Source: Alphaproteobacteria bacterium
Lineage (GTDB): Bacteria; Pseudomonadota; Alphaproteobacteria; SMXQ01
Direction: 5' to 3'
DNA: 64,000 nucleotides
Assembly: GCA_030831315.1 (NCBI GenBank)
Contig: JAURLI010000072.1
Location: 20 to 64,019, forward strand
Part shown: positions 20,721-50,110 of the stretch, in pieces
Layout: every line of letters starts with the position of its first letter
How positions within the stretch are numbered: the stretch's first letter is position 1
The notes under the pieces: generated by a model
The model's database searches: none
The model's input: only the letters and a program-made list of their open reading frames with translations
What the model was told of the DNA's origin: nothing
Program-made: the position numbers and the translations under genes

Positions 20721-22196
20721 TCATTTCGTCAGGAACGCGAGCTTGTCCATCCATTTGGCGCGGATATCATCGGCGTATTCGCGGCTGACCGCGTTCACCT
20801 TCGGGAAATCGTCCTTCCAGTGCCATGGCCGCACGGCGTAGATGATGATGCGTGAATTGGTCATGTCATCGCCCTCGCGTCGCTCGGGCAGAAGCATGGG
20901 ATCGATATAACCGGTCCAGCAGCCGTCGATGATGTCGGTCTGGGTCTTGGGATCCCAACGCGTTGCCATCGCCCACATGACTTCCGCGGGATTGGTGATG
21001 TCGATATCGTCATCGACGATGATCACCATGCGCCCGAGATAGGCGGACGAGCCGCAGCCCGCCGCCACCAGCCCCGCCATCTTGGCGTGGCCCGCGTGCA
21101 TCTGCTTTATCGAGACAACGCGGATGAAGCGCGGCCCCCCGCCAGGCAAGGTGTAAACGCCCTGCACGCCGGGCACGCCCGCCGCTTCCAGTTCGTCCCA
21201 CATGGCGGCCGAGCGGAAATGCCCCGATCCAGCCGTGCCGAACCAGAAGCCCGGCAACGTCGGGCGCACCGGCGGCGCGCCGGTGATGATGGGGTCGTTG
21301 CGATGGTAGATCGCCTTGATTTCCAGCACCGGCTCGGGCCGCGAGTTGGAGGCGTAGTATCCGGGCCATTCGCCGAACGGGCCTTCGCTCGCCGAACGCC
21401 GGTCGGGTGGCGGCATGAAACCTTCAAACACGATCTCGGCGTCGGCGGGAAACGGAATGCCGGTGTGCTTGCCCGCGACGACCTCGATCGGCCGCCCGAT
21501 GCGCGCCCCGGCAAGGGCGTATTCGGAAACCTTTTCCGCCGCGGTAGACGCCGCCGCCGCGCCCAGGACCGGCGCCTGGCCGACGCTGATCACCATCGGA
21601 CAGGCTTCGCCGCGCGCCCAGTATTTCTTGCGGATGACGTCGCCATGCTTGCCCGGCTCGATAAAGGGAACCAGCGTATTCTCGTCCTCGACCTTGACGC
21701 GATAGGTGCCGACATTGACCCAGTCGCTGTCGGGATCTTTCGTCACCACCATGCATTCGGTGCCGATGTAATGCCCGCCATCGCCTTCATGCCAGATGGG
21801 TGCCGGAAAGGCGCGCGCGTTGACCTTTGCCCCTTCCATGACGTTTTCGAGCACCGGCCCCGCCTTCACCGTCGCCGGCGGGATCGGGGCCGAGGTCTTG
21901 CGCCGATGCTTGCGGTACTTCTGCACGGCCTCAAGGCCGGAACCGTTGTCGAACACCTTCGACGAGCGCACGTTGACGGCAACGCGAAAGCCCTTCGGGA
22001 AGCCCTTGATGTTATCGAAAACGATGATCGGCGGGTCCGGGCGTTCGAGGGACAACTCGTACAGCGCGCCGATTTCCATCTTCGTATCGGCGCCTTCAAC
22101 GACTTCGAGATCGTCCATCTCACGCGCCAGATCAAGGCAGGTGCGAAGGTCGCCAAGGGCGGCAAGGCGCCGCGATTCCACGTTATCGCCCGACAT
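20721..22196 (-). CDS. UbiD-family (prFMN-dependent) decarboxylase, paralog A (short class, 491 aa)
   Basis: ORF track 20721..22409 trimmed to MSGDNVESRRLAALGDL.... UbiD motifs WVNVGTYRVKV and SEGPFGEWPGYYAS, with a C-terminus shared with paralogs B, D and F. Confidence 0.9.
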   Translation of the reverse strand: MSGDNVESRRLAALGDLRTCLDLAREMDDLEVVEGADTKMEIGALYELSLERPDPPIIVFDNIKGFPKGFRVAVNVRSSKVFDNGSGLEAVQKYRKHRRKTSAPIPPATVKAGPVLENVMEGAKVNARAFPAPIWHEGDGGHYIGTECMVVTKDPDSDWVNVGTYRVKVEDENTLVPFIEPGKHGDVIRKKYWARGEACPMVISVGQAPVLGAAAASTAAEKVSEYALAGARIGRPIEVVAGKHTGIPFPADAEIVFEGFMPPPDRRSASEGPFGEWPGYYASNSRPEPVLEIKAIYHRNDPIITGAPPVRPTLPGFWFGTAGSGHFRSAAMWDELEAAGVPGVQGVYTLPGGGPRFIRVVSIKQMHAGHAKMAGLVAAGCGSSAYLGRMVIIVDDDIDITNPAEVMWAMATRWDPKTQTDIIDGCWTGYIDPMLLPERREGDDMTNSRIIIYAVRPWHWKDDFPKVNAVSREYADDIRAKWMDKLAFLTK

Positions 22197-22215
22197 CGGG
22201 TGCTCCACTGATTTT

Positions 22216-23268
22216 CTACTGGGACTTCTTCTTTTTCTTTCCGCCGCCAGTATTTTCCGTCGCCACCGCCGCCTTGAAGCGCGCAACCACGGCGGGGGAC
22301 GCAGCCGAAATACCTTCAACCATCTTCTGCAGCTTCGTGCCCTCGATCGGCTGGATTTCGAGCTTGGCGCGGCTCGCATCTGCAAGCAATTTCGGATCGC
22401 CAATCGCACTCATGAAGGCCTTGCGCAGGAGCGCGATCCGTTCCGTTGGCACGCCGGGCGGCGCCATCATGGCGCGGCCGATGGTTTCCGTCGTCGCCAG
22501 CAGCGAGATCACCTGCCGCTCTTCATCGTTGCGAGCATATTCGATCAGGGTCGGAACCTCCTTGAGCATCGGATCACGTTCCAGGGTCATCTGGAACAGA
22601 GGCACGATCTTTTTTTCCTTCACCCACTGCGGGTTCTGAAAAGTATAAGACATCCACGAATTACTGCCCCGCCCCGATACCTCGCCGCTTTCCATCGCCT
22701 TGTTCACTTCCGTGGCGCTGCCATAGCCGAGCACCACCTTGAACTTCGTTCCAAACAGGCGGTTCGCCATCAGCGGATACATTTCCTGGGTCGTACCCGG
22801 CGTCGTCGCCCCGACGGCAATCTGCTTCTTCGTGGCGTCGGTCAGCGTCTTGAAACCTGTGGAGTGCCAGACCACCAGCACATTGGTCGGACTGGCCGTC
22901 GTGCCGATCCAGTTGAATTTGCCGACGTCGTATTTGGCCTTGCCCGGATTAAGAAGCTGGAAAATCGGGATCGTATTGAGTGTGGCGCCAAGCTGTGTCC
23001 CATCCTTCGGCGCGACACTGTAAATGAACGCCGCGACACGGGTCCCCCCCGCGCCCGGCATGTTCTTCGGCACCATGGTGGGGTTTCCGGGAAGATGCTG
23101 GCCGAGATGTCGCGACATCAACCGCGCATAGGCGTCATAGCTGCCGCCGGCACCCGAACCGATGGAAATCGTGATGGTCTTTCCCGCGAAAAACTCGTCT
23201 GCCGAAACGGTCGCGGGCGCAAGCGCGCACGCACAGAGCACGGCAATGGCAGGAATACGATTCGTCAT
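22216..23268 (-). CDS. TctC/Bug-family binding protein with C-terminal poly-lysine tail (...GGGKKKKKSQ)
   Basis: ORF track 22216..23286 trimmed to the ATG at 23268 (AGGGAG upstream). Signal peptide MTNRIPAIAVLCACALAPATVSA. Motif FFAGKTITISIGSGAGGSYDAYARLMSRHLGQHLPGNP. Confidence 0.85.
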   Translation of the reverse strand: MTNRIPAIAVLCACALAPATVSADEFFAGKTITISIGSGAGGSYDAYARLMSRHLGQHLPGNPTMVPKNMPGAGGTRVAAFIYSVAPKDGTQLGATLNTIPIFQLLNPGKAKYDVGKFNWIGTTASPTNVLVVWHSTGFKTLTDATKKQIAVGATTPGTTQEMYPLMANRLFGTKFKVVLGYGSATEVNKAMESGEVSGRGSNSWMSYTFQNPQWVKEKKIVPLFQMTLERDPMLKEVPTLIEYARNDEERQVISLLATTETIGRAMMAPPGVPTERIALLRKAFMSAIGDPKLLADASRAKLEIQPIEGTKLQKMVEGISAASPAVVARFKAAVATENTGGGKKKKKSQ

Positions 23269-23483
23269 GGCAAGGCTCCCTGGCAATCGGGCTCTTCAAG
23301 GCCCCTCGTTCATGGTTTCATTGATAGCCCTCAGGCGGCAGGGATACAAGACGGCTGGAAGCCGGCAGTAGAGATTTTTTCGAATTTCAAAATTGTTTTC
23401 TTTATTTTCTTTGTACGGGCGCTTGGCTATTGTCGTCCCGGGCGCCTTCCTGCCCCGCGACGACCACAACCGGAACCACGGCG
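23269..23483. promoter_or_regulatory. Divergent promoter region with an AT-rich island (23371-23414)
   Basis: 215-nt spacer between divergent genes. It contains gagattttttcgaatttcaaaattgttttctttattttctttg, which stands out against the GC-rich background. Confidence 0.4.
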
Positions 23484-24545
23484 ATGAGTGACCAGGCCGC
23501 AACCCTCGAAGCGCTCGAAAAGCTTATGTCCGAAGCGCATGTGCGTGGGCAGTGGCAGGTGGGCGCCAACCGGCCGGAAAACATGAAGCGCAGCCCGGAC
23601 GGGCGTGTATGGATCGACCCCGTGGCCCAGGCGAAGCCCTACCTGTGGCCGTGGCCGGTGATGGAAAAGATCCTCGAAGGCTCCTGCGTCGCCCTGCCCG
23701 AAAGCAACACCGCAAGGCGCAGCCTGATCTACATGAACCCCGCCCTCCAGCGCGGCACCACCCACAACATCCTCGCGGGCATACAGGTCATCCAGCCCGG
23801 CGAAATCGCCTGGGCGCACCGCCATACGGTCAATGCCCTGCGCTTCACCATCGACGGCGGCAACGACGTCTATACGGTGGTCGACGGCGAAGTGCTGCCG
23901 ATGCTGCCCTATGACCTGATCCTGACCCCCGGCTGGTGCTGGCACGACCACCACAACGACCGCGGGCGCCCGGCGACATGGCTCGACGTGCTCGATGTGC
24001 CTTTCATCGCCGCCATCAACCAGAACTATTACGAGGAACTGGGCGAAACGACCCAGGACCGCCGCAACGAGGCACCCCTGCCCGGCATCGAGCTGCTGCG
24101 CCCGATCGGCGAAAACCGCCCGACGGCGCCGCGCCCCTTCCGCTATCCGTGGGCGGAAACGCGCGCAAGGCTCGAACAGCTGGCCGAACAGCCTCCCGAT
24201 CCCTGCGACGGTATCGCCATCGAATACATCAACCCCGTGAACGGCGGTGCGGCCCTGTCGACGCTCGCCTGTTATGCGCAGATGCTGCCGCCCGGCTTCG
24301 AAGGACAGCGCCGGCGGCGCGGCGCAAGTGCCGTGCATTTCGTTGTCTCGGGCGAAGGACGCATCGAATTCGACGATACGACCCTTTCCTTTTCGCAACA
24401 TGACGGCATGGCGGTGCCGAACTGGACATGGCACCGCTTCGTCAATGCCTCCGCTTCCACACCTGCCTTCCTGTTCACGGTGACCGACCGGCCGATCCTC
24501 GATGCGTTCGGTCTCTACCGCGAACAGGCTGAAACGAAAACATAA
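23484..24545 (+). CDS. Gentisate 1,2-dioxygenase-family bicupin
   Basis: ORF track 23430..24545 trimmed to MSDQAATLEALEKL.... The N-terminal cupin iron motif is IQPGEIAWAHRHTVNALRFTIDGG...TPGWCWHDHHN. Paralog of 51208..52320 and 26355..27410. Confidence 0.85.
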   Translation: MSDQAATLEALEKLMSEAHVRGQWQVGANRPENMKRSPDGRVWIDPVAQAKPYLWPWPVMEKILEGSCVALPESNTARRSLIYMNPALQRGTTHNILAGIQVIQPGEIAWAHRHTVNALRFTIDGGNDVYTVVDGEVLPMLPYDLILTPGWCWHDHHNDRGRPATWLDVLDVPFIAAINQNYYEELGETTQDRRNEAPLPGIELLRPIGENRPTAPRPFRYPWAETRARLEQLAEQPPDPCDGIAIEYINPVNGGAALSTLACYAQMLPPGFEGQRRRRGASAVHFVVSGEGRIEFDDTTLSFSQHDGMAVPNWTWHRFVNASASTPAFLFTVTDRPILDAFGLYREQAETKT

Positions 24546-24566
24546 TCCACCCGGGAGAACCGCCCC

Positions 24567-25358
24567 ATGGCGCGCAAGACCACATCCAAAGCCAAGACCG
24601 CGAAGAAACCACGCACTACCAAGGCGGCGCCCGCAAAGGGCCGGCGCAGCGATCCCCTGAAGGCGCACGAGCAGAAGCTCTTCGATCTCGCCAACGGCCA
24701 GTTCGAATCGGCTGCCTACAAGCGCATGTTCGCGGCCCCTTGGACGAAGAAGGGCGTGCAGCAGTTCTTCATGCAGCATGCCCAGTTCAACCTGAACCGG
24801 CGCGATTGCTGGGGCCATGTCCAGGGCTCCGCCCCCCTCGCCGTAAAGAAAATCGTATGGGAGCACGAGGAAGAGGAACTCGGCGGCGTTGCCGCGCGCG
24901 GCGGCGCCAATCACTACGAGCTTGCGGTTCAGCAGGGAGCATCCTTCGGACTCAAGCCAAAGGACTATTACGACGCTCCGACGATGGATGGGTCCTTCGT
25001 TTCCTTCCAGGCGTGGCTGCACATCGCCCAGCATTCGCACTGGCTCGAGGCCTTCGCCGCCTCTGCCGCGCTCGAATATTCGAACTCGGAAAAGGTCATT
25101 CGCGGTGGCTGCCTGTCGCGCCGCATGGGTGAAAAGCTCCAGAAGGAGCTCGGCATCCCGATGAAGAAACAGTATTCGAACGAGGAACACGTCACCGCCG
25201 ACGTCGCCCACGGCGAATTGCTGATCACCATCGGCCGCATGTACGGCGACACGCAGGAAGCGCGTGACCTAATCATGGCGGGCGCGGTCAAGAGCTGGAC
25301 CGTGGACCGCGTGTTCCGGAACTTCCTCGCCAGCCTGCTGGAGGACTGCGCCCGCTAG
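24567..25358 (+). CDS. TenA/PqqC/CADD-like heme-oxygenase-fold protein (putative di-iron enzyme) with basic N-terminal tail
   Basis: 263 aa, GGGAGAA upstream. Candidate ligand motifs are WEHEEEELGG...NHYEL, ALEYSNSE and EEHVTADVAHGE (H-x3-D-x2-H). Paralog of 52343..53074, more distantly of 39331..40104. Confidence 0.75.
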   Translation: MARKTTSKAKTAKKPRTTKAAPAKGRRSDPLKAHEQKLFDLANGQFESAAYKRMFAAPWTKKGVQQFFMQHAQFNLNRRDCWGHVQGSAPLAVKKIVWEHEEEELGGVAARGGANHYELAVQQGASFGLKPKDYYDAPTMDGSFVSFQAWLHIAQHSHWLEAFAASAALEYSNSEKVIRGGCLSRRMGEKLQKELGIPMKKQYSNEEHVTADVAHGELLITIGRMYGDTQEARDLIMAGAVKSWTVDRVFRNFLASLLEDCAR

Positions 25359-26191
25359 GCGTCCTTCTCTTCCGTCGCGCCGAGTTTGCGCGACAACTCG
25401 CGGGTTACATCCTTGAGGATTCGCGCGGCTTCGCCCGAATAGGACGTGTCGTAGCTGCCGCGCACGCCGATCAAAGTCATGGCGAGGGCGATATGCACGT
25501 CGCGGCCGAATACGGGTGCCGCGATATTCGCGTGATTGGGCGTGCGTTCGCCGATGGCCCGCGTGATGCCGCGCTTGCGCACCTCGTCACGGATCTTAAC
25601 GACCCGTTCCATCGTCATCTGGTCCCTGCCCTCGCGCGCGGCGTTCCATTCCGGAATCTCGCGATCGAGCAACGGCTTGCTCAATTGATCGGATTCGTAG
25701 GCAAGAAACAGGTTGCCGGCCGACGTGGTAAGAAGCGGAAGCACCACGCCTTCGCGGATGCGGATGGGTGTCGACAGGGTCGCATGTTCGCAACGGATCA
25801 CCGTCGGACCGTGGGTGCCCCAGATCGTCAGGGTCGAGACCAGCCCGGTGCGCTGCGACAGGTCGGGCATCGCCGCCATCGCAAGGCGCACGGGATCGAT
25901 GCGGCTGATCGCCGCAAGGCCGAGACGCAGCACCTCTGGTCCCAGATCGTAGCGGCCGGAAATCTCGTCCTGCTCCACCAGCCCACTGTCGACCAGGGCG
26001 CGCAGGTAGCGGTAGGCCCGGCTCGGCGACATATCGGCGGCGGCGGCAACCCGCGTCAGCGTCGTCGGCCCGTCAAAATTCGAGACGACACCAAGCAGAT
26101 GCGCGCCGATCACCAGCGTGCTGTTGCCGCGCGTCTCCGGCGCCTTGGCACGGGGGCGACGGGGTTTCTTGGGAGCGGGCTTGCGGGCCAT
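25355..26191 (-). CDS. IclR-family transcriptional regulator
   Basis: 278 aa. Winged HTH TLTRVAAAADMSPSRAYRYLRALVDSGLVEQDEISGRYDLGP plus an IclR effector domain. Its stop overlaps the convergent 24567..25358 gene by 4 nt (CTAG). Confidence 0.9.
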   Translation of the reverse strand: MARKPAPKKPRRPRAKAPETRGNSTLVIGAHLLGVVSNFDGPTTLTRVAAAADMSPSRAYRYLRALVDSGLVEQDEISGRYDLGPEVLRLGLAAISRIDPVRLAMAAMPDLSQRTGLVSTLTIWGTHGPTVIRCEHATLSTPIRIREGVVLPLLTTSAGNLFLAYESDQLSKPLLDREIPEWNAAREGRDQMTMERVVKIRDEVRKRGITRAIGERTPNHANIAAPVFGRDVHIALAMTLIGVRGSYDTSYSGEAARILKDVTRELSRKLGATEEKDA

Positions 26192-26354
26192 GAACAGCCT
26201 TTCGGTGGGTCGGGGGAATGGCGAAATGCAGGCGGATTATATTTTTGATATTCGAAATAACCAGCCCCGACGACCAGCAAAAAGCAAAAGCCGTTTCCCA
26301 TAGCGCAACGGCTCAGGCAAAATAGCCCTGCCGCGGGCCGCAGGGGAGGCAGGC
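26192..26354. promoter_or_regulatory. Divergent promoter region (IclR / dioxygenase-like operon) with an AT-rich element
   Basis: Contains ggattatatttttgatattcgaaataacc (26235-26262), the only AT-rich patch in the spacer. Confidence 0.4.
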
Positions 26355-27410
26355 GTGAGCCAAGCGAAAGACAAGCCGGGAGGCATCGGAGCGGAAAAGC
26401 GCGATGCCTTCGACCGTCGGGTGCGGGACAGGAACCTGCTCGGCTACTGGATGATTCCCAACCGCTCCGACGGCCACCGCGAGCCCGAACCGGGCTACGG
26501 CGTCCATCTCTGGCACTGGTCGGAGATGCAGGCGATCCTCGACGAGGCCGTCGACAACATCCCCAAGGAAGAAGCCCACCGCCGCTTCATCGGCTACCAG
26601 CATCCCGATCTCAAGATGGGCACGACGCCTAACCTGATGCTCGGCGCCCAGATGCTGATGCCGGGCGAGATGGCGCCCTGCCACCGTCACACGATGGATG
26701 CCGTGCGCTTCGTCGTCGAAGGCGACGGCAGCACCTGTACCGTGGTCGAAGGCGAAGAATTCCCGATGGCGCGCGGCGATCTCGTCACCACGCCGAACTG
26801 GAGCTGGCACGACCACATTTCCGGCGGCGCCAGCCGGACGATCTGGATGGACGCCGCGGTGGCGCCACTGACGACTCATTTCCGTATCGGTTTTGCCGAC
26901 CTGCACCAGGCGCCGCAGCAGACCGTGACGCGCCCGCGCGGCTGGTCGGCGGCCCAGTTCGGTCCGCTGCGGGCGAAGAACCGGGAGTACTCTGCCACCG
27001 CTTACCGCCCGCCTTACCGCTATCCCTGGGTCGAAACGAAAGCCGCCCTCGATGTCCTTGCCGAAGGTGCCGGCGACCCGTACGAGGCCGTGACTCTCTC
27101 CTTTGCCGATCCCCTTTCCGGCGGGCCAACGCTGCCCACCGTCGATTGCGAACTGACAATGCTGCGATCTGGAGAAAAGACTCGTTCCCACCGCCACACG
27201 GCGGCGGCGATCTATCATGTCTTTCAAGGACGCGGCAGCGCTGCGGTCGGAGACGCTCGCGTCGCATGGGAAGAAGGCGATACCTTCGTCGTGCCCAGCT
27301 GGGCCTGGCATGGGCTGGAAAACCGCGGCAGCGAACCCGCGCTGCTGTTTTCCATAAACGACGGCCCGGTGATGAATGCGCTCGGATTCTGGCGGGAAGA
27401 GCGCAGATAA
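26355..27410 (+). CDS. Gentisate 1,2-dioxygenase-family bicupin
   Basis: 351 aa, GTG start after GGGAGG. N-cupin motif MPGEMAPCHRHTMDAVRFVVEGDG...TPNWSWHDH. The C-cupin retains SHRHTAAAIYHVFQGRG. Confidence 0.85.
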   Translation: MSQAKDKPGGIGAEKRDAFDRRVRDRNLLGYWMIPNRSDGHREPEPGYGVHLWHWSEMQAILDEAVDNIPKEEAHRRFIGYQHPDLKMGTTPNLMLGAQMLMPGEMAPCHRHTMDAVRFVVEGDGSTCTVVEGEEFPMARGDLVTTPNWSWHDHISGGASRTIWMDAAVAPLTTHFRIGFADLHQAPQQTVTRPRGWSAAQFGPLRAKNREYSATAYRPPYRYPWVETKAALDVLAEGAGDPYEAVTLSFADPLSGGPTLPTVDCELTMLRSGEKTRSHRHTAAAIYHVFQGRGSAAVGDARVAWEEGDTFVVPSWAWHGLENRGSEPALLFSINDGPVMNALGFWREERR

Positions 27411-27485
27411 CGCCGATAAGGGGTTGCAGCGCTTTGCGAATATTGCGACCCTTGGGCAAATTTCAAAAATACAGGGAGTGTTCAC

Positions 27486-28550
27486 ATGAAGATATCCGCT
27501 TCGCTCCGCTTTGCCGCGCTTGCCGCCGTGACCGCGGCGGCCGTCGCAACGACACCGGCCGTCGCCGAGGTGTCCTTCAAGGGCAAGACGGTCAAGATCA
27601 TCATCAATTCGAAGCCGGGCGGCGGCACCGACGCCAGCGCCCGCCAGGTCGGCGCGCTGCTTGCCGACAATCTGCCGGGCAAGCCGCAGATCGTGTTCCA
27701 GAACCTTCCAGGCGGCGGCGGCATCAAGGCGAATAATTACTTCGCCGCTAAGGTCAAGGGTGACGGCCTGACCGCGCTGGCCGGATCGCGCACCCAGGTC
27801 AGCCCCTACAAGCTGCGCCACAAGAGCGTGAAATACGATCCGGGCAAGTACCGCTTTGTCGGCGGCACAGCCCGTCTCGGCACCATCATCCTGATCAACA
27901 AGGATCCGAAAATTCAGGCGCGGCTCATGGACAAGTCCCAGAAGCCGGTCGCCTTCGGCGCCATCGACGGCGAACGCACCGGCGACCATGCCGCCGTCTG
28001 GGCGATGGAATACCTCGGCTGGAATCTCAAGTTCGTGCTGGGCTACGCGGGCACGTCGGAAATGCTGCTGGCGGCGCGCCGCGGCGAAGTCGACATGGTC
28101 AACAACCAGACCGTGTTCAATGTCATGCCGCTAATGAACGACAACATGAAGGCGATCGTCCAGCTCGGCAACCGCGACGACAACGACAAGTTTGTCGAGC
28201 GCGTCGAATTCAAGGGCGTGCCGGTTCTGGGCGACATGCTGAAAGGCAAGCTCGACGCCAAGGCGGCAAAGTCCTACGCGGGCTGGCTCGACGACCAGAC
28301 CGTGGAAAAGTGGATCGCCCTGCCCGCCGGCACTCCCGACGACCTGACCAAGGCCTGGCGCGATGCCCATGACAAGGTGATGAAGGATCCCAAGTTCGTC
28401 GAGCTCGCCAAGCGGGAATTCGGCGGCGACTTCGGCTGGTATACGGGCCGGCAGATGGACAGCATCGTGAAAAATCTCGTCGCCACCACGGACGAGGACC
28501 TCGCCTTCTTCATCAACCTGCGCAAGAAGCACGGGCTGCCCATTCAGTAA
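27486..28550 (+). CDS. TctC/Bug-family binding protein (EVxFKGK subfamily, no C-terminal extension)
   Basis: 354 aa. Signal peptide MKISASLRFAALAAVTAAAVATTPAVAEV, motif NSKPGGGTDASARQVGALLADNLPGKP. Colinear with 1042..2364 and 47248..48561 but ends where their extra domain begins. Confidence 0.85.
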   Translation: MKISASLRFAALAAVTAAAVATTPAVAEVSFKGKTVKIIINSKPGGGTDASARQVGALLADNLPGKPQIVFQNLPGGGGIKANNYFAAKVKGDGLTALAGSRTQVSPYKLRHKSVKYDPGKYRFVGGTARLGTIILINKDPKIQARLMDKSQKPVAFGAIDGERTGDHAAVWAMEYLGWNLKFVLGYAGTSEMLLAARRGEVDMVNNQTVFNVMPLMNDNMKAIVQLGNRDDNDKFVERVEFKGVPVLGDMLKGKLDAKAAKSYAGWLDDQTVEKWIALPAGTPDDLTKAWRDAHDKVMKDPKFVELAKREFGGDFGWYTGRQMDSIVKNLVATTDEDLAFFINLRKKHGLPIQ

Positions 28551-28559
28551 TCCATCAGC

Positions 28560-28600
28560 GCGCAGCCGGCGATTACCCCCGCCGGCTGCGCAACTTCTTT
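28560..28600 (+). terminator. Candidate intrinsic terminator/attenuator between the binding-protein gene and the permease gene
   Basis: 12-bp GC stem (gcgcagccggcg / cgccggctgcgc) with an 8-nt loop, followed by the pyrimidine-rich aacttcttttcctttcccc. It lies 10 nt after the stop at 28550. Confidence 0.45.
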
Positions 28601-28634
28601 TCCTTTCCCCGTTGACCGGGCCTCAATCCAGAAC

Positions 28635-30632: not shown

Positions 30633-30635
30633 CCG

Positions 30636-37719: not shown

Positions 37720-37720
37720 T

Positions 37721-42163: not shown

Positions 42164-42191
42164 TTTAGCGGATATCTGCAGGAGACCAGAG

Positions 42192-43349
42192 ATGACCAAG
42201 GTCAAGACCGAGGGCGCTCCCGAACGGGCGGAAATCGTCAAGCCCGAGCGTGTCGATCCGCGCGTCCATGATTATGAAATCATCGATACCGACATTCACC
42301 TGCTGCCCGACTGGGACCGGCTGCGCGACTACATGCCCGAACCCTATCGCACCAAGCTCAAGACCTTCCCGCTCGTGGGCTCGGACTACAACCCGTCCTA
42401 CGCGACCAACAAGCCGGGCACCGGGCAGGAAGTTTTCGGCCGCGCCAAGACCGGCGCCGATGTGCTGGATTCGATGAAGGATACGGGCGCCAATTCGGTC
42501 ATCATCGTGCCCGGATTCCTCAGGCCCCAGAGCATGTATCACAAGTCCTGGGTTTCCGTTCTGGCCTCGGCCTACAACGACTACGTGATCGAGAACGTCT
42601 TTCCGGCCAGCCCCGACATCAAGGCGGAGCTGATGATCAACCAGCGCATCCCCGAAGATGCGGCACGGGAAATCCGCCGGGTCGGCCATCACAAGCAGTT
42701 CGTCAGCGCCTATACCGAATTCGGCGGCAACTACGAGCAGATCGGCACCGTCGATCACGACCCGATCTTCGAGGCCGCGCTCGAACACCAGCTGATCGTC
42801 ACCCTTCACGCAGGCACGTTCTGGCAGGCCTACACGCCCTTGCACCAGGGCGCGCGCACGTGGACGGAACTGCTCGGCGTTTCGACCATGGCAATCTGCC
42901 TGGCGGACGTCGCCAGCATGATCATCCAGGGCGTTTTCGACAAGTACCCGGACCTGCGCTGCACAATCAAGGAAGGCGGCTTCTGGTGGATACCGGAGAT
43001 GTCGCTGCGGCTCGACGATTATTACCTGAACCACCCGCACGACATCAGCCTGTGCGAACGCAAGATCGAGGCAGGCGAAGCCTTCCTGCGCCACCTGCCG
43101 AGCGATTACATCTGGGAACACTTCCGCTTCTCGACCCAGCCGATGCTGTTTCCGAAAAATCCGAAACACGCTCAGTGGCTCTGGGAAATGTGCCGGGCAG
43201 AGGACATGCTGCTGTTCTCCACCGACTGGCCCCACGCCACCTTTGATCCGCCCAACTGGATGTTCGATACAGGCTTCATCACCGAAAAGGCGCGGCGCAG
43301 GATATTCAGCGAAAATGCCCGCGCCTGGTACCCGCGGCTGGCAAAATAG
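42192..43349 (+). CDS. Amidohydrolase_2 (ACMSD/LigW/LigJ-type) metal-dependent decarboxylase/hydratase family protein
   Basis: 385 aa. N-terminal IIDTDIHLLP (DxH variant of the metal motif), internal TLHAG, and C-terminal LLFSTDWPH aspartate motif. Confidence 0.85.
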   Translation: MTKVKTEGAPERAEIVKPERVDPRVHDYEIIDTDIHLLPDWDRLRDYMPEPYRTKLKTFPLVGSDYNPSYATNKPGTGQEVFGRAKTGADVLDSMKDTGANSVIIVPGFLRPQSMYHKSWVSVLASAYNDYVIENVFPASPDIKAELMINQRIPEDAAREIRRVGHHKQFVSAYTEFGGNYEQIGTVDHDPIFEAALEHQLIVTLHAGTFWQAYTPLHQGARTWTELLGVSTMAICLADVASMIIQGVFDKYPDLRCTIKEGGFWWIPEMSLRLDDYYLNHPHDISLCERKIEAGEAFLRHLPSDYIWEHFRFSTQPMLFPKNPKHAQWLWEMCRAEDMLLFSTDWPHATFDPPNWMFDTGFITEKARRRIFSENARAWYPRLAK

Positions 43350-43393
43350 GTTCGCGCGGCACAAGCGCGGCGATAGTAACAGGGAGATTACGA

Positions 43394-45013
43394 GTGGACG
43401 GCAAGCACGACGGGTCCGCGCAGTTGCAGGACCTGAGGGCGCATCTCGAGCGCCTGGAAAAGGAAGAACTTCTCACCCGCGTCACGCGGCCGATCAACAA
43501 GGATACGGAACTCATGCCGCTCGTGCGCTGGCAGTTCCGCGGCCTGCATGAGGATCAGCGGCGAGGCTTCCTGTTCGAAAACGTCACCGATGCGCGCGGA
43601 CGCAATTTCGAGGGATCCGTCGCGGTCGGCATATATGCCGCCTCGCGCAAGGTCTATTCCCTCGGCATGGGCTGCCCGGTCGACCAGATCCGCAAACGCT
43701 GGGCGGAAGCCCAGGCCCGGCCGCTCAAGCCGGTCGAGGTCGCCACCGGCCCGGTGCATGAGGAAGTGCACATGGGCAAGGACCTCCTCGCCCACAACGG
43801 CATCGAGGAATTCCCGATTCCCATTTCGACGCCCGGTTTTGACGTCGGCCCCTACACCACCGCGTCGAACTGGATCACGCGCGATCCCGATACGGGCTGG
43901 ATCAACGTCGGCAACTACCGCGGACAGGTCAAGGCGGCCGATCGATTCGGCATGTTCATCAGCCCGCGCAATCACGGCTTCAAGCACTGGGATTCGGCGC
44001 GTCAGAAGGGCAAGGCGCTGGAAGCGGCACTGGTCATTGGCGGCCCCGCCGCCGTCACCTATGCGTCTGGTTCACGCATTCCCTGGGGCGTCGAGGAATA
44101 CGCCGTCGCCGGCGGCCTGATCGGCGAGCCGCTCGAGGTCGTCAAGTGCAAGACCGTCGACCTGACCGTTCCGGCCCATGCCGAGTTGGTGATCGAGGGA
44201 CGCATCAGCCACGAATACCTGGAGCCGGAAGCGCCGTTCGGCGAATACACCGGCTACATGGGCGGGCGCCTCTATAACGCGGTGATGGAAGTCACCGCTA
44301 TCACCCACCGCAAGAATCCCGTCTTTGCCGCGATCATCAGCCAGATGCCGCCGAGCGAATCGAGCATGCTGAAGAAAATCGGCCAGGATGCGGCCTATCT
44401 CCATTACCTGCGCAACACCTGCAACCTGCCCGATGTCCTCGAAGTCAACTGCCACGAGATCGCCGTCGATTCCTGGGTCGTCGTGCGCATGCGCCGCTGC
44501 AACCAGGCCGCCGTATGGCAGGCGCTCTACGCCGTCGCCGGACGCAACGCGATGGTCGGCAAGTACATCATCGCGGTGGACGAGGACATCGATGCGAGCG
44601 ACCTCGACGCCGTCATCTGGGCGCTGAGCTACCGCACCCAGCCCCATGCCGACAGCCTGATCCTGCCCAACCGCTCCGTCGGGCTCGATCCGTCGGGCCT
44701 GCCGCCGGGCGAGGACATCAGCGATTCGACCGTGCAGCAGCATTTCGGCTCGGCCATCCTGATCAACGCGATGCGCAAATGGGATTACCCGCCGGTCTCA
44801 CTGCCGCGCAAGGAATACATGGAAAACGCGCGGCGCATCTGGGAGGAACTCCAGCTGCCCCGCCTGACCCCGCGCAACCCGTGGCACGGCTACGAGCTGG
44901 GCGACTGGTCGGAACGCGACCGCGAGGAGGCCGACTGGGCCGTGAAAGGCGAGTACATCAGGACCGGCGAACGCGCGCTGAAAGAGCGCAAGCCGGTCGA
45001 AGGCGAAGAATAA
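43394..45013 (+). CDS. UbiD-family decarboxylase, paralog E (long class, 539 aa)
   Basis: GTG start after AGGGAG. Motifs RVTRPINKDTELMPLV, WINVGNYRGQV and PEAPFGEYTGYMGG. C-terminal WDYPPVSLPRKEYMENARRIWEELQLP shared with paralog C. Confidence 0.9.
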   Translation: MDGKHDGSAQLQDLRAHLERLEKEELLTRVTRPINKDTELMPLVRWQFRGLHEDQRRGFLFENVTDARGRNFEGSVAVGIYAASRKVYSLGMGCPVDQIRKRWAEAQARPLKPVEVATGPVHEEVHMGKDLLAHNGIEEFPIPISTPGFDVGPYTTASNWITRDPDTGWINVGNYRGQVKAADRFGMFISPRNHGFKHWDSARQKGKALEAALVIGGPAAVTYASGSRIPWGVEEYAVAGGLIGEPLEVVKCKTVDLTVPAHAELVIEGRISHEYLEPEAPFGEYTGYMGGRLYNAVMEVTAITHRKNPVFAAIISQMPPSESSMLKKIGQDAAYLHYLRNTCNLPDVLEVNCHEIAVDSWVVVRMRRCNQAAVWQALYAVAGRNAMVGKYIIAVDEDIDASDLDAVIWALSYRTQPHADSLILPNRSVGLDPSGLPPGEDISDSTVQQHFGSAILINAMRKWDYPPVSLPRKEYMENARRIWEELQLPRLTPRNPWHGYELGDWSERDREEADWAVKGEYIRTGERALKERKPVEGEE

Positions 45014-45065
45014 GCGCCGCAAAAGGCGTGCCCCGCCGAAGGCGCGGGCAAAACAGGAGGGAAAC

Positions 45066-46175
45066 ATGACGGGATACAAGACAGGACAGGTGCGCCTTGG
45101 CTGTTACGCCGGGGCGTTGACCGCGGCGATCGCGCTTGCGGCCCCCGCGGGTGCGCAAGGCTTCGACGCGAAGGCCGAAGCCGCCTTCTTCAAGGGCAAA
45201 ACGGTCACCGTCGTCGTCGGCTTCGGCACCGGCGGTGGCTACGACACCTATGCCCGGCTGCTTGCCCGACACTACGGTCGCCATCTGCTGGGCGCACCCA
45301 ACGTCATTGTCCAGAACATGCCGGGCGCGTCCGGTATCAAGTCGGGCAATTACATTTACGAGGTCGCCCCGCGCGACGGGACGGCCATTTCGCTGTTCAA
45401 CAAGTCGATGCCGACCTACGAGGCGCTTGAACGGCCGGGCGTCCGTTTCAAGTCGAAAGAGCTCAACTGGATCGGGTCGATCGAAGCCGCCAATGCCACG
45501 ATGATCGTGATGGCATCTTCGGGCATCAAGACGATGGCCGATGCGGGCAAGCGCGAGGTCATCCTGGGCGCGGTCAGCGCATCCGGGTCGATGGGTTTCT
45601 ACCCGGCCATGACCAACCGCCTGCTCGGCACGAAATTCAAAATCATCTCGGGCTATCCCGGATCAAAGGCGATCACGCTGGCGATGGAACGCGGCGAGGT
45701 CGAAGGCGTCGGCAGCCCGCCGTGGACGTCCTGGCTCGCCACCACGCCCGAATGGGTGCGCGACAAGAAGATCAACGTGCTGGCGCAGCTCGGCCTCAAG
45801 AAGGATCCGACGATCCCGGGGCCGCTGCTGACCGAACTCGCGGCGGACGAGAAATCCCGCAAGATCATCGAGTTCGTCTCCGCCGACATCGCCATCGGGC
45901 GTCCTGTGGCCGCGCCGCCCAAGGTGCCCGCCGGGCGCGTTCAGGCCATGCGCCGGTCCTTCGATGCCGCGCTTAAGGACCAGAAGCTTCTCGCCGATGC
46001 GATGCGCCTCAAGCTCGATATCGGTCCCGACACGGGCGAAACCGTCGAAAAGCTGGTGCACGCCATGATCGACACGCCGAAAGACATCATCGCCGAGGCC
46101 AAGGACGCGATCGAGCCCAAGGGCCTCGTCAAACGAGAGATCAAGAGCAAGAAGAAAAAGAAGAAAGCCGAATAG
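45066..46175 (+). CDS. TctC/Bug-family binding protein with C-terminal poly-lysine tail (...KSKKKKKKAE)
   Basis: 369 aa, AGGAGGG upstream, signal peptide, motif FFKGKTVTVVVGFGTGGGYDTYARLLARHYGRHLLGAPNVIVQNMPGASG. The K-run is at 46149-46166. Confidence 0.85.
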   Translation: MTGYKTGQVRLGCYAGALTAAIALAAPAGAQGFDAKAEAAFFKGKTVTVVVGFGTGGGYDTYARLLARHYGRHLLGAPNVIVQNMPGASGIKSGNYIYEVAPRDGTAISLFNKSMPTYEALERPGVRFKSKELNWIGSIEAANATMIVMASSGIKTMADAGKREVILGAVSASGSMGFYPAMTNRLLGTKFKIISGYPGSKAITLAMERGEVEGVGSPPWTSWLATTPEWVRDKKINVLAQLGLKKDPTIPGPLLTELAADEKSRKIIEFVSADIAIGRPVAAPPKVPAGRVQAMRRSFDAALKDQKLLADAMRLKLDIGPDTGETVEKLVHAMIDTPKDIIAEAKDAIEPKGLVKREIKSKKKKKKAE

Positions 46176-46227
46176 GCAACTAAACCGCGCCGGCCAATGC
46201 CGGCACGCGACATTAAGGGAGGTAACA

Positions 46228-47214
46228 TTGGCGGACCATATCCATTTCCCCTATCGTTCTTCGAGCCACCTGCCATTCCTGCACGTGGTTTACGAATCGG
46301 GTTCGTGGAAGAAGCACGGGCTCGAGGTCGATTACAATTACAAGATCAGTTCCAAGGACGCGCACATGGAAGTGCCGTCGGAACATGTCGAATTCGTCGG
46401 CGGCAATCATGTCTCGACCTACGCCCAGCGCGCCCACGAAGACACTTGGGTATACCTGGGCCAGAGCGTGAATACGCTGAATACGCGTCTTGTCGTGAAG
46501 CTGGACTCCGAAATCTGCGGCGTGCCGGACCTGATGGGCAAGAAGATCGGTACCCGCGGCATGCACCCGGGGCTCAACGACTGGATCTACTGCAAGCAGC
46601 GGGGACTGGATGTGGACCGCGGCGACATTGAATTCGTCAGCCAGATCAGCGCCCCCATGGGCAGCATGGACCCCGGCTTCAAGGATGAGGACGTCGAGCG
46701 TCTGCCGCTCTGGCACTGGGTGCGCGACGGCAAGGTCGATGCCGCCTTCGTCACGGCGCCGGGCTGCCTTCACGCGCAGAAGGCGGGACTCAAGGTCATC
46801 GACATCGATCCGCTGCCGATGATCTGGTTCACGACGATCTCCTCGTCCTCCACCTTCATCAAGAAGCATCCCGATATCGTGGAGCGATTCCTCAAGGGGC
46901 TGATCGAGGGCATCCACTACTTCAAGACCCACGAGGCGGAAGCGACCGCCATGATCAAGAAGCACTATACGGATGAAGGCCAACTGACAGACGACGAGGC
47001 GACCTTCCTTTATCACGACGTCGCCCGAATTCTGGAACCGAAGCTCTATCCGTCGATGACGTCGATCTCGAACGTCTATCAGGAGGCGATCCGCCAGAAC
47101 AAGGATGCGCGCCAGGTCAATCCCATGGAACTTTGGGACATGCACCACATCCGCCAGATCGACGACAGCGGGTTCATTCGTGATCTCTACAAGAACATGC
47201 CCGTGACGAAATGA
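46228..47214 (+). CDS. NMT1/THI5-like (SsuA/TauA-fold) protein without signal peptide
   Basis: 328 aa, TTG start after AAGGGAGG. It begins directly MADHIHFPYRSSSHLPF with no hydrophobic leader. Paralog of the 1..980 gene. Confidence 0.8.
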   Translation: MADHIHFPYRSSSHLPFLHVVYESGSWKKHGLEVDYNYKISSKDAHMEVPSEHVEFVGGNHVSTYAQRAHEDTWVYLGQSVNTLNTRLVVKLDSEICGVPDLMGKKIGTRGMHPGLNDWIYCKQRGLDVDRGDIEFVSQISAPMGSMDPGFKDEDVERLPLWHWVRDGKVDAAFVTAPGCLHAQKAGLKVIDIDPLPMIWFTTISSSSTFIKKHPDIVERFLKGLIEGIHYFKTHEAEATAMIKKHYTDEGQLTDDEATFLYHDVARILEPKLYPSMTSISNVYQEAIRQNKDARQVNPMELWDMHHIRQIDDSGFIRDLYKNMPVTK

Positions 47215-47247
47215 TTGAGGCGGGGCGACCCGCCAAAGGAGGCCACA

Positions 47248-48561
47248 ATGCACAAAATGCTTTCCCGTAGCTTTGCGCGTACCGCCTTCATTGCCGGCAT
47301 CACTGCCGGCATGGCTTGCACGATTTCTGCTCCGGCCAGCGCCGAGGTCGATTTCAAGGGCAAGCAGATCGTCATGATCATCGGCAATGCCGCCGGCGGC
47401 GGCACCGATGCCGTCGGCCGTCTTGTCGGCGAATACCTGACGCGATACCTGCCGGGCAAACCAACACTCATTGTCCGAAACATGCCCGGCGCCGGCGGCA
47501 TCACCGCCCTCAACTTCTTCGCCACCCAGGTGAAGAACGACGGCACCTACCTTACCACCGGGGCTTCGACCCAGACCGATCCCGTCCATTGGCGGGCCAA
47601 GGCATCGAAATACGACCCCCGGGACTTCCGCATGATCGGCGGCATCGTGCGCGGCTCGACCGTGCTGATGCTGAACAAGAAGGCGGTCGAACGCCTCACG
47701 GACAAGTCAAAACCGCCGGTCGTGGTCGGCGCCATCGACGGCACCCGCTCGGGCATCATCATGTCCATGTGGGGCGGCAAGTACCTGGGCTGGAACATCA
47801 AGTGGGTAACCGGCTACGGCGGCACTTCGGAACTGATTCTCGCGCTGCAGCGTGGCGAGATCGACCTGACGTCCACCGCTAACAGCTTCCTCATCCGCGA
47901 GATGCTGCAAAAAGGCAGCCACGTCGCGCTCGCCCAGTCGGGCACGCTGGTTGACGGCAAGCTGATCGCGCGTGCGGAGCACAAGACCGTTCCGATCTTC
48001 CCCGAACAGATCCGCCCGCACCTCAAGTCCGAGGTCGAGCAGCAGGCCTTCGGCTACTGGGAAGGCATCAACGCCACGGACAAGTGGCTCGCCCTGCCCA
48101 AGGGCACGCCCGATGACGTGGTCAAAGCCTACGAAACCGCATTCCTGAAAGCGGTCAAGGACCCGACCTTCATCCAGCGGGGCAAGGCCTCGATCAGCGA
48201 GGACATCAGCGCCCTCAACGCGGCCGATCAGGACAAGCTGGTCCGCCAGCTTGCGGCGACCACGGACGAGGCGCTGACCTTCATCGAAAACGTGAAGAAA
48301 GAACAGGGCCTCCGTTCACATGCCAAGAAGAAGGTGGCGATCAGAACCGTCAGCACGAAGATCGACGCCGTCGAGAACAAGAGCCGGGTGCTGGTGTTCA
48401 AGGCAGCTGGCAAGACCGACAAGGTCGAACTTTCGGGCGGCGCCACCGAGATCAAGATCGCCGGCAAGAAAGCCTCGCGCCGCGACCTGAAAGCGGGCAT
48501 GGCCTGCGATATCAGTTATGGCGCCTCGGGGAGCATGGCGAAGGCCGTTACCTGCAAGTAA
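47248..48561 (+). CDS. TctC/Bug-family binding protein with an extra ~85-aa C-terminal Cys-pair domain
   Basis: ORF track 47215..48561 trimmed to the ATG at 47248 (AAAGGAGG upstream). Signal peptide MHKMLSRSFARTAFIAGITAGMACTISAPASAEV. The C-terminal extension ends ...LKAGMACDISYGASGSMAKAVTCK. Confidence 0.85.
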   Translation: MHKMLSRSFARTAFIAGITAGMACTISAPASAEVDFKGKQIVMIIGNAAGGGTDAVGRLVGEYLTRYLPGKPTLIVRNMPGAGGITALNFFATQVKNDGTYLTTGASTQTDPVHWRAKASKYDPRDFRMIGGIVRGSTVLMLNKKAVERLTDKSKPPVVVGAIDGTRSGIIMSMWGGKYLGWNIKWVTGYGGTSELILALQRGEIDLTSTANSFLIREMLQKGSHVALAQSGTLVDGKLIARAEHKTVPIFPEQIRPHLKSEVEQQAFGYWEGINATDKWLALPKGTPDDVVKAYETAFLKAVKDPTFIQRGKASISEDISALNAADQDKLVRQLAATTDEALTFIENVKKEQGLRSHAKKKVAIRTVSTKIDAVENKSRVLVFKAAGKTDKVELSGGATEIKIAGKKASRRDLKAGMACDISYGASGSMAKAVTCK

Positions 48562-48631
48562 TGCATCCGGTGGCCGCGCGCAGGGCGTGGCCACCGTCGT
48601 TTTCTCAATCAGCAAAGTCCGGAACACGGAA

Positions 48632-50110
48632 ATGAGCGCAAAAAAGGATGACATTGATCCCGCCCTCAGGAAGGCCGCGATGGCCGACCTGCGCGATTAC
48701 CTGCGCATCGTCACCGAACGTGGCGAACTGGAAGAAGTCCACGGCGCGGACCCCATGCTGGAGATGGGCGCGCTCTATGAGCTGTCGCTGGAAAAGCTCT
48801 ATCCGCCCGTCCTGCATTTCCGCAACCTCAAGGGAATCGATCCGAACTTCTCGGTCCTGACCAACGTACGGTTCGCACGCACGATGGTCGGCAATCTTGA
48901 TCTGGAGGCTGTGCGAAACCTCAAGAACACGAACCGCTGGGCCTCGGACCCCATTCCGCCCGAGGAAGTGAACACCGGCCCGATCATGGATCACGTCGAT
49001 GAAGGGGATGCCGTCAATCTTCTCAAGTTTCCGGCAGCACAGTGGAAAGAAGGCGACGGCGGCCGCTACATCGGCACCGAATGTCTCGTCATAAACCGCG
49101 ATCCCGATACCGGCTACGTCAACCTCGGCACCTACAGAAACATGGTCGTTGACGGCAAGACCCTCGCCGTCTTCATCGAACCTGGCAAGCATGGCGATCT
49201 CATCCGCAAGAAATACTGGGCTCGGGGTGAACCGTGCCCGATGGTGATCTGCGTCGGTCAGGCACCCATTCTCGGCATGGTCGCGGGTACCGCGTCGCGT
49301 TTCGGCGTCAGCGAATACGACATGGCGGGTGCGCGCATCGGCCGAGCGATCAAAGTGGTGCGCGGCAAGCTCACTGACCTGCCCATCCCCGCAGATGCGG
49401 AAGTGGCCTTTGAGGGCTTCATGCCCCCGGTCGAGGTCGAAAGCACCACCGAAGGCCCGTTCGGCGAGTGGCCGGGCTATTACGCTTCTGACGTGCGGCG
49501 CGAAACGGTACTCAAGGTCGGGGCGACCTATCACAGGGACAAACCGATCCTGATCGGCCAACCGCCTGCCAAGCCTACCCTGCCCGGCCGACAGCCCTCT
49601 CTTACAGCAATGGCGGCGCTGTGGAATGCTCTGGAAGCGGCCGGCGTACCCGGAGTCAAGGGCGTGTGGAAGATGGCCGGTGGGGGCGTCAGCTTCATCA
49701 ACGTTGTCGCCATCGAGCAGATGCATGCAGGCCACGCCAAGATGGCCGGCATGGTGGCGGCCGGTTGTGCGCCCGGCGCCTACATGACGCGAATCGTCAT
49801 TATTGTCGATGACGACATCGACGTCACCAACCCGGCCGAAGTGATGTGGGCGCTGGCGACGCGATGGGACCCCAAGACCCAGACCGACATCATCGACGGC
49901 TGCTGGACTGGCTATATCGACCCTTACCTGCCGCCGGACAAACGCGAAAAGGACGACCTGACGACACCGCGGGTCATCATCTACGCAGTACGGCCATGGC
50001 ACTGGAAGGACCAGTTCCCGAAGGTCAACGCCGTCAGCCGGGATTACGCGGACGAAGTTCGTAAAAAGTGGGCGTCAAAGCTTCCATTCCTGAATATGCC
50101 TGAAAGATAG
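48632..50110 (+). CDS. UbiD-family decarboxylase, paralog F (short class, 492 aa)
   Basis: ORF track 48518..50110 trimmed to MSAKKDDIDPALRKAAMADLRDYL.... Motifs YVNLGTYRNMV, TEGPFGEWPGYYAS and WDPKTQTDIIDGCWTGYIDP. Confidence 0.9.
   Translation: MSAKKDDIDPALRKAAMADLRDYLRIVTERGELEEVHGADPMLEMGALYELSLEKLYPPVLHFRNLKGIDPNFSVLTNVRFARTMVGNLDLEAVRNLKNTNRWASDPIPPEEVNTGPIMDHVDEGDAVNLLKFPAAQWKEGDGGRYIGTECLVINRDPDTGYVNLGTYRNMVVDGKTLAVFIEPGKHGDLIRKKYWARGEPCPMVICVGQAPILGMVAGTASRFGVSEYDMAGARIGRAIKVVRGKLTDLPIPADAEVAFEGFMPPVEVESTTEGPFGEWPGYYASDVRRETVLKVGATYHRDKPILIGQPPAKPTLPGRQPSLTAMAALWNALEAAGVPGVKGVWKMAGGGVSFINVVAIEQMHAGHAKMAGMVAAGCAPGAYMTRIVIIVDDDIDVTNPAEVMWALATRWDPKTQTDIIDGCWTGYIDPYLPPDKREKDDLTTPRVIIYAVRPWHWKDQFPKVNAVSRDYADEVRKKWASKLPFLNMPER

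Follow-up and report, generated by a model that had tools for sequence, protein, structure and literature searches.

Six genes for UbiD-family decarboxylases, here called UbiD A to F, were found within 29.4 kb of a 64,000-nucleotide stretch of DNA (contig JAURLI010000072.1, positions 20 to 64,019 of the forward strand; assembly GCA_030831315.1), referred to below as the window. The source is a metagenome-assembled genome (MAG) of an uncultured soil alphaproteobacterium. On balance, the six genes and their neighbours probably constitute a multi-substrate catabolic island for aromatic and heteroaromatic carboxylic acids. Similar gene sets are widespread in soil MAGs; the island is unusually dense among them but not unique.

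Real genes were picked from many shadow open reading frames (ORFs) by codon-position G+C, and gene families were assigned by Pfam on the approximately 55 called genes. Window G+C was approximately 63% throughout. ORFs and Pfam matches agreed on six full-length UbiD genes, at the positions and in the two length classes that had been given in the original prediction, which was made from the sequence alone: a short class of four proteins (A, B, D and F, 487 to 492 aa) and a long class of two (C and E, 529 to 539 aa). All six matched Pfam UbiD (E 7e-51 to 2e-57) and UbiD_C (E 3e-15 to 3e-26), far beyond chance; UbiD_N was matched in five and fell below threshold in UbiD D. For UbiD D, which was called from a GTG start, an alternative ATG is present at 41734, and NCBI annotates a 525-aa version from there. 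Pairwise identity was 61-64% in the short class, 46% between C and E, and approximately 29% between classes.

The six proteins were aligned with fragments of PhdA and HmfF taken from PDB alignments. The N-x-G-x-Y-R motif (Asn plus catalytic Arg), the Glu of (S/C/E)E(Y/L)..AG and the acid/base loop E-[GA]-P-F-G-E were present in 6/6 proteins, as was the metal-ligand His (in EPGKH or RNH); in UbiD C, RNH follows a five-residue loop insertion and its alignment is less certain. We take the Asn, His and Glu to be the ligands of the Mn2+/K+ site that binds the phosphate of prenylated flavin mononucleotide (prFMN), N168/H191/E233 in Fdc1 numbering. The motif strings quoted in support of an intact catalytic loop were exact, and, judged by these residues, the six are probably competent, intact family members. 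One detail did not stand. The C-terminal motif WDYPP.SLPR.EYME..W.ELQLP, which had been named as an extension specific to the long class, aligns with the C-terminal helix W(H)WKDxFPKVN...W..KL of the short class and PhdA, and is mostly common to both classes. The true extra piece is the approximately 45 aa beyond that helix (PW.GY.LG.W...EEA..AV.G....TG), and the same conserved tail is found in long-class homologs of Paraburkholderia, Clostridia, Chloroflexi and Deltaproteobacteria.

Relatives were sought by a scan of GTDB species representatives. At least 545 were found and 80 loci were returned, all of them from MAGs (Alphaproteobacteria, Binatia, Chloroflexota, 'Delta'/Thermodesulfobacteriota, Gemmatimonas and others). 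A distance-based neighbor-joining tree was made from 120 UbiDs of related loci, the six proteins of the window and the fragments of PhdA and HmfF, the sole characterised references. A, B, D and F formed one subclade, with MAG members only, nested in a wide radiation that includes PhdA. C and E formed a clade of their own, separate from the clade with HmfF, their nearest solved structure. The best PDB match of the short class was 7PDA (PhdA), at 405 bits for UbiD B, and the next solved UbiD reached at most 151; that of the long class was HmfF 6H6X, at 180 bits over residues 70-436, for UbiD E. Plasmids of cultured organisms had homologs of 43% identity at best. No NCBIfam equivalog cut-off was reached by any of the six: the VdcC model, for example, gave 180-215 bits vs a cut-off of 650, and for the long class NCBIfam offered only the generic model TIGR00148. 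By tree and model scores both clades are uncharacterised. As far as a neighbor-joining tree with two references can place them, the six fall there and not with enzymes of unrelated pathways, in line with the original prediction.

The model scores also bear on a biosynthetic role, either in quinone formation (UbiD, MqnL/SCO4490 type) or in secondary metabolism (TtnD, SmdK, BagN type). All six match the generic TIGR00148 and, weakly, the menaquinone and BagN models. Such a role is nevertheless hardly credible: scores lay far below the equivalog cut-offs for canonical UbiD (PRK10922, 112-150 bits vs 788), the menaquinone-type SCO4490 model (141-199 vs 496) and BagN (103-164 vs 1000). No prenyltransferase, polyketide synthase, nonribosomal peptide synthetase or other biosynthetic gene was found in the window, where the neighbours are genes for transport, ring cleavage and the beta-ketoadipate pathway. 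The JGI name carried by homologs, '4-hydroxy-3-polyprenylbenzoate decarboxylase', was set aside as a generic label.

Orthologs of A, B, C and D were present at 83-89% in a sister genome, MFD02416.bin.1.43 (loci L003 and L005; approximately 77-80% nucleotide identity to the window), and those of A and B also in more distant MAGs. The ortholog of A (86%, L005) has the same flanking solute-binding protein (SBP) and pca genes; orthologs of B were found in L003 and L004 (84-86%), and those of C (89%) and D (83%) in L003. The sister genome is syntenic with the window from D via C, B and A into the pca genes. In the tree the short-class paralogs, which have orthologs in other MAGs, split earlier than the species. 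The paralogs are old, separately conserved orthogroups and therefore most likely differ in substrate or regiospecificity; the view that they are not decayed duplicates was borne out.

Redundant recent duplicates, decaying copies, or similar regions wrongly merged during assembly or binning would be an extremely improbable source of the six genes. The sequence does come from a MAG, many gene families of the island are multi-copy, and in the NCBI assembly of this species the contig ends within the Amidohydro_2 gene next to UbiD E. The paralogs are, however, diverged to the degree given above with all catalytic residues kept, A to D have orthologs elsewhere, and base composition is uniform. The second assembly (contig JAYOFB010000006.1, GCA_038117025.1, locus L001) is 98% identical to the window over 23986-42580. 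The junction beyond its break is spanned by an independent 8.7-kb metagenome contig (L090) with the order 523-aa ORF, Rieske, Amidohydro_2, 88% homolog of UbiD E, SBP, UbiD, NMT1-like; the homolog of E thus has the same Rieske-Amidohydro_2-UbiD-SBP context. The 523-aa ORF, on the opposite strand at the position of UbiD D, is without a Pfam record. From the L090 junction, the second assembly and the synteny of the sister MAG from D through A to pca, the cluster is therefore not an assembly artefact. Two observations on the second assembly may be added: the contig ends at window position 42580, and the heme-oxygenase-like gene between D and C has 85% protein identity to L001, vs 96-99% for the flanking genes, a local strain divergence.

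UbiD counts and UbiX linkage were obtained by HMM and tblastn searches over 82 related loci, each of at most ±10 kb. One UbiD was present in 55/82 loci, two in 20/82, three in 5/82 and four in 2/82, so that 27/82 have two to four UbiDs within approximately 21 kb. With five UbiDs within 16 kb and six within 29.4 kb, the window gave the highest count seen. The density had been called exceptional; it is better described as the upper end of a continuum, given the multi-UbiD loci and the sister MAG, which has at least five UbiDs in 35 kb, one of them additional to the A-D orthologs. The toolkit of the island (UbiD, gentisate dioxygenase-family, heme-oxygenase-like, bicupin, Amidohydro_2, TctA and SBP genes) recurs in MAGs of Hyphomicrobiaceae, Gemmatimonas, Binatia and 'Thermodesulfobacteriota'.

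The reported lack of a UbiX partner holds for the 64-kb window: no Flavoprotein (PF02441) match was found among the approximately 55 genes, and tblastn with E. coli UbiX was also without a match. The query was validated by 53-60% matches in L021, L056, L059, L079 and L082. The lack is not peculiar to this locus; ubiX was linked in only 5/82 related loci, and its absence here is therefore the rule. A ubiX gene is expected elsewhere in the genome of this proteobacterium. In cultured Paraburkholderia tuberum (GCA_902833905.1; L084, 2345-12237), a long-class homolog 64% identical to E is directly followed by a PF02441 UbiX gene. On the other side of the homolog lie a Rieske dioxygenase system, an aldehyde dehydrogenase and a bicupin.

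Strand and spacing delimit six operons, none with an internal gap above 84 bp (Table 1). The SBP-UbiD_A-SBP operon is co-directional with pcaHG and lies 208 bp upstream of them; pcaHG head the genes for the protocatechuate branch of beta-ketoadipate metabolism. The sister genome has a similar arrangement, with pcaH/G and pcaB-CMD downstream of SBP-UbiD_A-SBP: these stretches align in L005, and the CoA-transferase stretch (16393-18023) has no alignment above 300 bp. The kept link to pcaHG points to protocatechuate as the product of UbiD A, with a carboxylated dihydroxybenzoate as its substrate. Seven secreted SBPs were counted, six of which are listed with coordinates; their N-termini are signal-peptide-like by eye. 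A 664-aa equivalent of TctA with a weak TctB match was found in L083. The two IclR-family regulators (39% identical) are located between operons.

Table 1. Operons and genes of the island and adjoining pca region (window coordinates). SBP, solute-binding protein; GDO, gentisate dioxygenase-family bicupin; HDO, heme-oxygenase-like protein.
Feature	Position	Strand	Description
Operon i		-	SBP, UbiD_A, SBP; after 208 bp pcaH, pcaG, two CoA-transferase genes, pcaB-like, CMD
Operon ii		+	GDO, HDO
Operon iii		+	GDO, SBP, TctA (665 aa)
Operon iv		-	bicupin, UbiD_B, three bicupins
Operon v		-	UbiD_D, HDO, UbiD_C
Operon vi	41852-53074	+	ten genes: Rieske, Amidohydro_2, UbiD_E, SBP, NMT1-like, SBP, UbiD_F, SBP, GDO, HDO
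UbiD A	20721-22196	-	491 aa, short class; Pfam UbiD; operon i
UbiD B	33986-35455	-	489 aa, short class; Pfam UbiD; operon iv (cupin-UbiD_B-cupin-cupin-cupin)
UbiD C	37721-39310	-	529 aa, long class; Pfam UbiD; last gene of operon v
UbiD D	40157-41620	-	487 aa, short class, GTG start; Pfam UbiD; operon v
UbiD E	43394-45013	+	539 aa, long class; Pfam UbiD; operon vi
UbiD F	48632-50110	+	492 aa, short class; Pfam UbiD; operon vi
Protocatechuate branch of beta-ketoadipate pathway	14627-19370	-	pcaH, pcaG, two CoA-transferase subunits (pcaIJ), pcaB-like lyase, CMD-domain; Pfam
SBP, family 1	19579-20676	-	divergent TctC-like; family members 37-40% mutually identical
SBP, family 1	22216-23286	-	as above
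SBP, family 1	45066-46175	+	as above
SBP, family 1	50134-51186	+	as above
SBP, family 2	27486-28550	+	42% identical to the other family 2 member
SBP, family 2	47215-48561	+	as above
TctA permease	28635-30632	+	665 aa; Pfam TctA 8e-113
IclR-family regulator	25355-26191	-	Pfam
IclR-family regulator	36859-37719	+	Pfam
GDO	23430-24545	+	Pfam gentisate-1,2-dioxygenase family
GDO	51208-52320	+	paralog of preceding
GDO (third)	26355-27410	+	351 aa; PDB 3BU7 199.5 bits; NCBIfam 252 bits
Tandem bicupin 1	30636-31757	-	~370 aa; the three tandem bicupins 52-58% mutually identical
Tandem bicupin 2	31757-32869	-	as above
Tandem bicupin 3	32866-34041	-	as above
Fourth permuted bicupin	35485-36600	-	33-36% identical to the tandem three
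HDO, between UbiD D and C	39331-40104	-	CADD-like, CADD/PqqC fold; Pfam Haem_oxygenas_2
HDO	24567-25358	+	Pfam
HDO	52343-53074	+	Pfam
NMT1/THI5-like protein	46228-47214	+	Pfam; no signal peptide by N-terminus inspection
Small Rieske protein	41852-42163	+	103 aa; pair with Amidohydro_2
Amidohydro_2 protein	42192-43349	+	family includes non-oxidative aromatic decarboxylases (LigW, gamma-resorcylate type)

The operon layout also bears on the main rival to a catabolic island of separate decarboxylases, namely that certain UbiDs act together as the subunits of hetero-oligomeric (de)carboxylases, D with C (and the HDO protein) and E with F (and the NMT1-like protein). Analogues would be the alpha/beta UbiD-like core of phenylphosphate carboxylase and the putative benzene and naphthalene carboxylases. 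Long and short UbiDs share an operon here and a locus in L003, L013, L036, L045, L047 and L066; two long-class UbiDs stand in tandem in L086, and modules in L089, L041, L048 and L087 pair UbiDs from two consistently matched subclades. The best NCBIfam model for the four short-class proteins, moreover, was that for phenylphosphate carboxylase beta. The scores were, however, 215-251 bits vs a cut-off of 469, those for the alpha model were at most 150 bits vs 565, and PpcB itself is 33% identical. No gamma or delta subunit, phenylphosphate synthase or VdcD-like ORF was found in the window, where the gaps beside the six UbiDs leave no room for a small subunit, be it one of phenylphosphate carboxylase or the D subunit of the VdcC/AroY type. 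Furthermore, the complete catalytic set is present in 6/6, so that none looks purely structural; A and B are without a second UbiD in their operons; and the surrounding genes code for O2-dependent dioxygenases and not for anaerobic carboxylation. We consider a hetero-oligomer unlikely.

The three canonical bicupins retain the HRH...WHDH His ligands. NCBIfam models for gentisate and 5-aminosalicylate dioxygenases scored them similarly (235-252 bits) and below the cut-offs (442 for gentisate); by ligands and profiles they are members of the gentisate 1,2-dioxygenase family in the broad sense. The two GDO-HDO pairs (23430-25358 and 51208-53074) are paralogous, at 46% and 48% identity. In the other four bicupins, the 3-His motif HRHG...WHxHF is carried by the C-terminal barrel. 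Their N-terminal barrel was matched by hhalign (probability 93%) to the C-terminal, non-catalytic barrel of gentisate dioxygenases; the domain order is therefore swapped relative to those enzymes. An AlphaFold2 (AF2) model of a 370-aa bicupin from four sequences (pLDDT 68) confirmed the bicupin fold and nothing more, and Foldseek returned only generic bicupins (oxalate decarboxylase, vicilins; TM ~0.47). The triple tandem is kept in L002 (3453-6848), L003, L004 and L086 (4948-8350), and its conservation suggests a hetero-oligomer of the three bicupins.

The HDO proteins (~247 aa) conserve E95, H104, H188, D192, H196 and E227. The AF2 model (pLDDT 93.5) gave CADD 8VAG as the top Foldseek match (TMt 0.84), followed by PqqC, FlcD, UndA and BesC, and the proteins are probably di-metal. 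The JGI label 'PqqC' was treated as generic, as the E/H/H/D/H/E pattern and the CADD match favour a di-metal protein over cofactor-less PqqC. Homology to PhdC, an HpaC-like flavin reductase, was rejected in view of the CADD/PqqC fold. The HDO gene adjoins a UbiD gene in eight other related loci, and stands directly beside a UbiD or GDO gene in many phyla. When sampling was centred on the HDO gene (L083, L087 and L089), a same-strand UbiD lay within three genes in two of the three loci; in L083 it lies approximately 9 kb away in divergent orientation. No literature linking UbiD with heme-oxygenase-like proteins was found.

The NMT1-like protein, from inspection of its N-terminus, is probably cytoplasmic and not a transporter component. 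It recurs among UbiDs in L041, L048, L087 (8487-9398), L089 (6788-7765) and L090. No homolog was found in the plasmid collection and no NCBIfam model matched; a candidate identity, 4,5-dihydroxyphthalate decarboxylase, had no support from these sources or from the literature and was dropped. The pair of a small Rieske protein (102-103 aa) and an Amidohydro_2 protein is kept beside long-class UbiDs in L086 (1-1497) and L090 (1568-3071). A Rieske protein is an odd partner for a hydrolase-fold decarboxylase.

Modules of the form UbiD-HDO-UbiD (window), UbiD-HDO-NMT1-UbiD (L089) and UbiD-NMT1-HDO-UbiD (L041, L048 and L087) were thus observed, those with NMT1 in MAGs of Binatia, 'Thermodesulfobacteriota' and Alphaproteobacteria. 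They could represent a new multi-component UbiD system in which the HDO protein is a dedicated partner of the decarboxylase, a reading that we regard as quite improbable. The HDO protein could then carry out the O2-dependent maturation or activation of prFMN, a role like that of PhdC and LpdD, to which it is unrelated, or else be an obligately coupled oxygenase that makes a reversible decarboxylation irreversible. Modules of UbiD, CADD-like, NMT1-like and bicupin genes, like the partner families themselves, appear undescribed: a literature search on UbiD with gentisate, with the tripartite tricarboxylate transporter or with heme-oxygenase-like proteins returned no description of this cluster type.

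For the catabolic island that we favour, the following scheme is proposed. Periplasmic TctC-like SBPs would bind ring compounds bearing two or three carboxyl groups and pass them on to the tripartite tricarboxylate permease, which is of TctA type. The cytoplasmic UbiDs, supplied with prFMN through a ubiX assumed to lie elsewhere in the genome, would each remove a ring carboxyl non-oxidatively. Ring cleavage of the products would be the task of three canonical and four domain-permuted dioxygenases of the gentisate/salicylate type or, in the case of UbiD A, of protocatechuate 3,4-cleavage encoded immediately downstream. The CADD-like di-metal proteins would contribute a reaction that depends on O2, such as a hydroxylation after decarboxylation and before the ring is cleaved, and the IclR regulators would control the operons. 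The same-operon pairs D+C and E+F may act sequentially on one poly-carboxylated ring. The nearest characterised enzymes, PhdA and HmfF, act on free (hetero)aromatic acids, which supports the scheme; the catabolic context also fits the earlier suggestion of many substrates or sequential decarboxylation.

Several points weigh against it. No characterised relative exceeds 50% identity, and the close homologs are MAG sequences without exception. Pfam TctC is matched only weakly by the SBPs (E 1e-3 to 3e-8). UbiX is absent from the window. A maleylpyruvate isomerase or hydrolase of the FAH family was not found there either, so that the scheme does not account for the fate of a gentisate-type cleavage product. 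The repeated co-occurrence of long and short UbiDs also fits a hetero-oligomer. Finally, UbiD reactions are reversible, and the direction is therefore inferred from context only.

Further features were observed near the window ends. A canonical TctCBA system with a PrpF-family isomerase (4193-8400) lies beside a 418-aa LysR-type ORF (2657-3913, - strand) with two HTH_1 matches, which may be a duplicated DNA-binding domain or an over-extended or merged ORF. A 507-aa protein (1042-2565, - strand), without a Pfam match at E <= 0.001, was matched by an ad hoc profile of the island SBPs; an NMT1-like gene (3-1052, - strand) lies beside it, and L002 has a comparable pair (538 aa plus NMT1) beside its UbiD/cupin module. 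At 60059-63672 (+ strand), a GltD-like Fe-S flavoprotein and a 2-oxoacid:ferredoxin oxidoreductase (POR/POR_N) are encoded amid otherwise O2-dependent dioxygenases.

UbiDs are sought as reversible (de)carboxylation catalysts and, to our knowledge, only about a dozen specificities are known. The island and its many soil-metagenome relatives define two populous uncharacterised UbiD clades: the PhdA-related subclade of MAGs, and the long-tailed clade near HmfF, which has cultured members such as P. tuberum, a tractable entry point to the long-class substrate. Ligands of the SBPs could reveal UbiD substrates. Candidates are benzene polycarboxylates derived from lignin, humic matter or pyrogenic carbon, hydroxyphthalates and N-heterocyclic acids. 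If the substrates are poly-carboxylated aromatics, the island would encode an aerobic route of non-oxidative decarboxylation that is widespread in soil carbon turnover. The literature searched offered no account of this kind of route acting on free aromatic dicarboxylates, and an aerobic free-acid UbiD route would be new. The linkage of UbiDs to CADD-like proteins, permuted bicupin triplets and NMT1-like proteins points to undescribed partner functions.

Among known systems, the short class most resembles PhdA of Mycolicibacterium fortuitum, the phenazine-1-carboxylate decarboxylase of 7PDA (PMC10850782). The two align end to end with approximately half of the residues identical, share EGPFGEW, VNVGTYR and the C-terminal W.WKD helix, and fall in the same tree radiation; the substrate of PhdA is a free aromatic acid. 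PhdA differs in that it groups with other MAG sequences and is not sister to A/B/D/F, and in its gene context, the UbiDs of the window being neighboured by TctC-like SBPs and cupin dioxygenases. PhdA is partnered by PhdB (UbiX) and PhdC, an HpaC-like prFMN maturase (PMC13040415); no counterpart of either, as a Flavoprotein or flavin-reductase family match in Pfam, was found among the window genes.

The best solved match of the long class, HmfF (6H6V, 6H6X), acts on a dicarboxylated heteroaromatic ring, 2,5-furandicarboxylic acid. Its furan specificity is set by His296/297 (PMC7976604). In both C and E this His is replaced by Ser, inside the family-invariant motif PPSESS. The position that we take to be R304 of HmfF is Arg in C and Gln in E. 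HmfF (448 aa) is without the ~45-aa C-terminal tail of C and E, and no hmf gene, including HmfG (UbiX), was found in the window by Pfam.

Phenylphosphate carboxylase of Thauera and Aromatoleum provides, in PpcA/PpcB, a precedent for two UbiD paralogs in one complex. The short class differs from PpcB in its low identity (33%) and in scoring approximately half the equivalog cut-off; the gamma and delta subunits are absent here, and the gene context of the window is aerobic. The tph and iph operons of Comamonas (terephthalate and isophthalate) resemble the island in joining aromatic dicarboxylate catabolism to TctC-family SBPs, a shared TctBA permease and IclR-type regulators, and in funnelling their products to protocatechuate. 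They differ in removing the carboxyl oxidatively, by a Rieske dioxygenase and a dehydrogenase, and are not known to employ UbiD. For phthalate isomers, uptake through tripartite tricarboxylate transporter systems has been documented (PMC13040137). Where UbiD enzymes are known to act in phthalate degradation, the substrates are in every case CoA thioesters and the organisms anaerobes.

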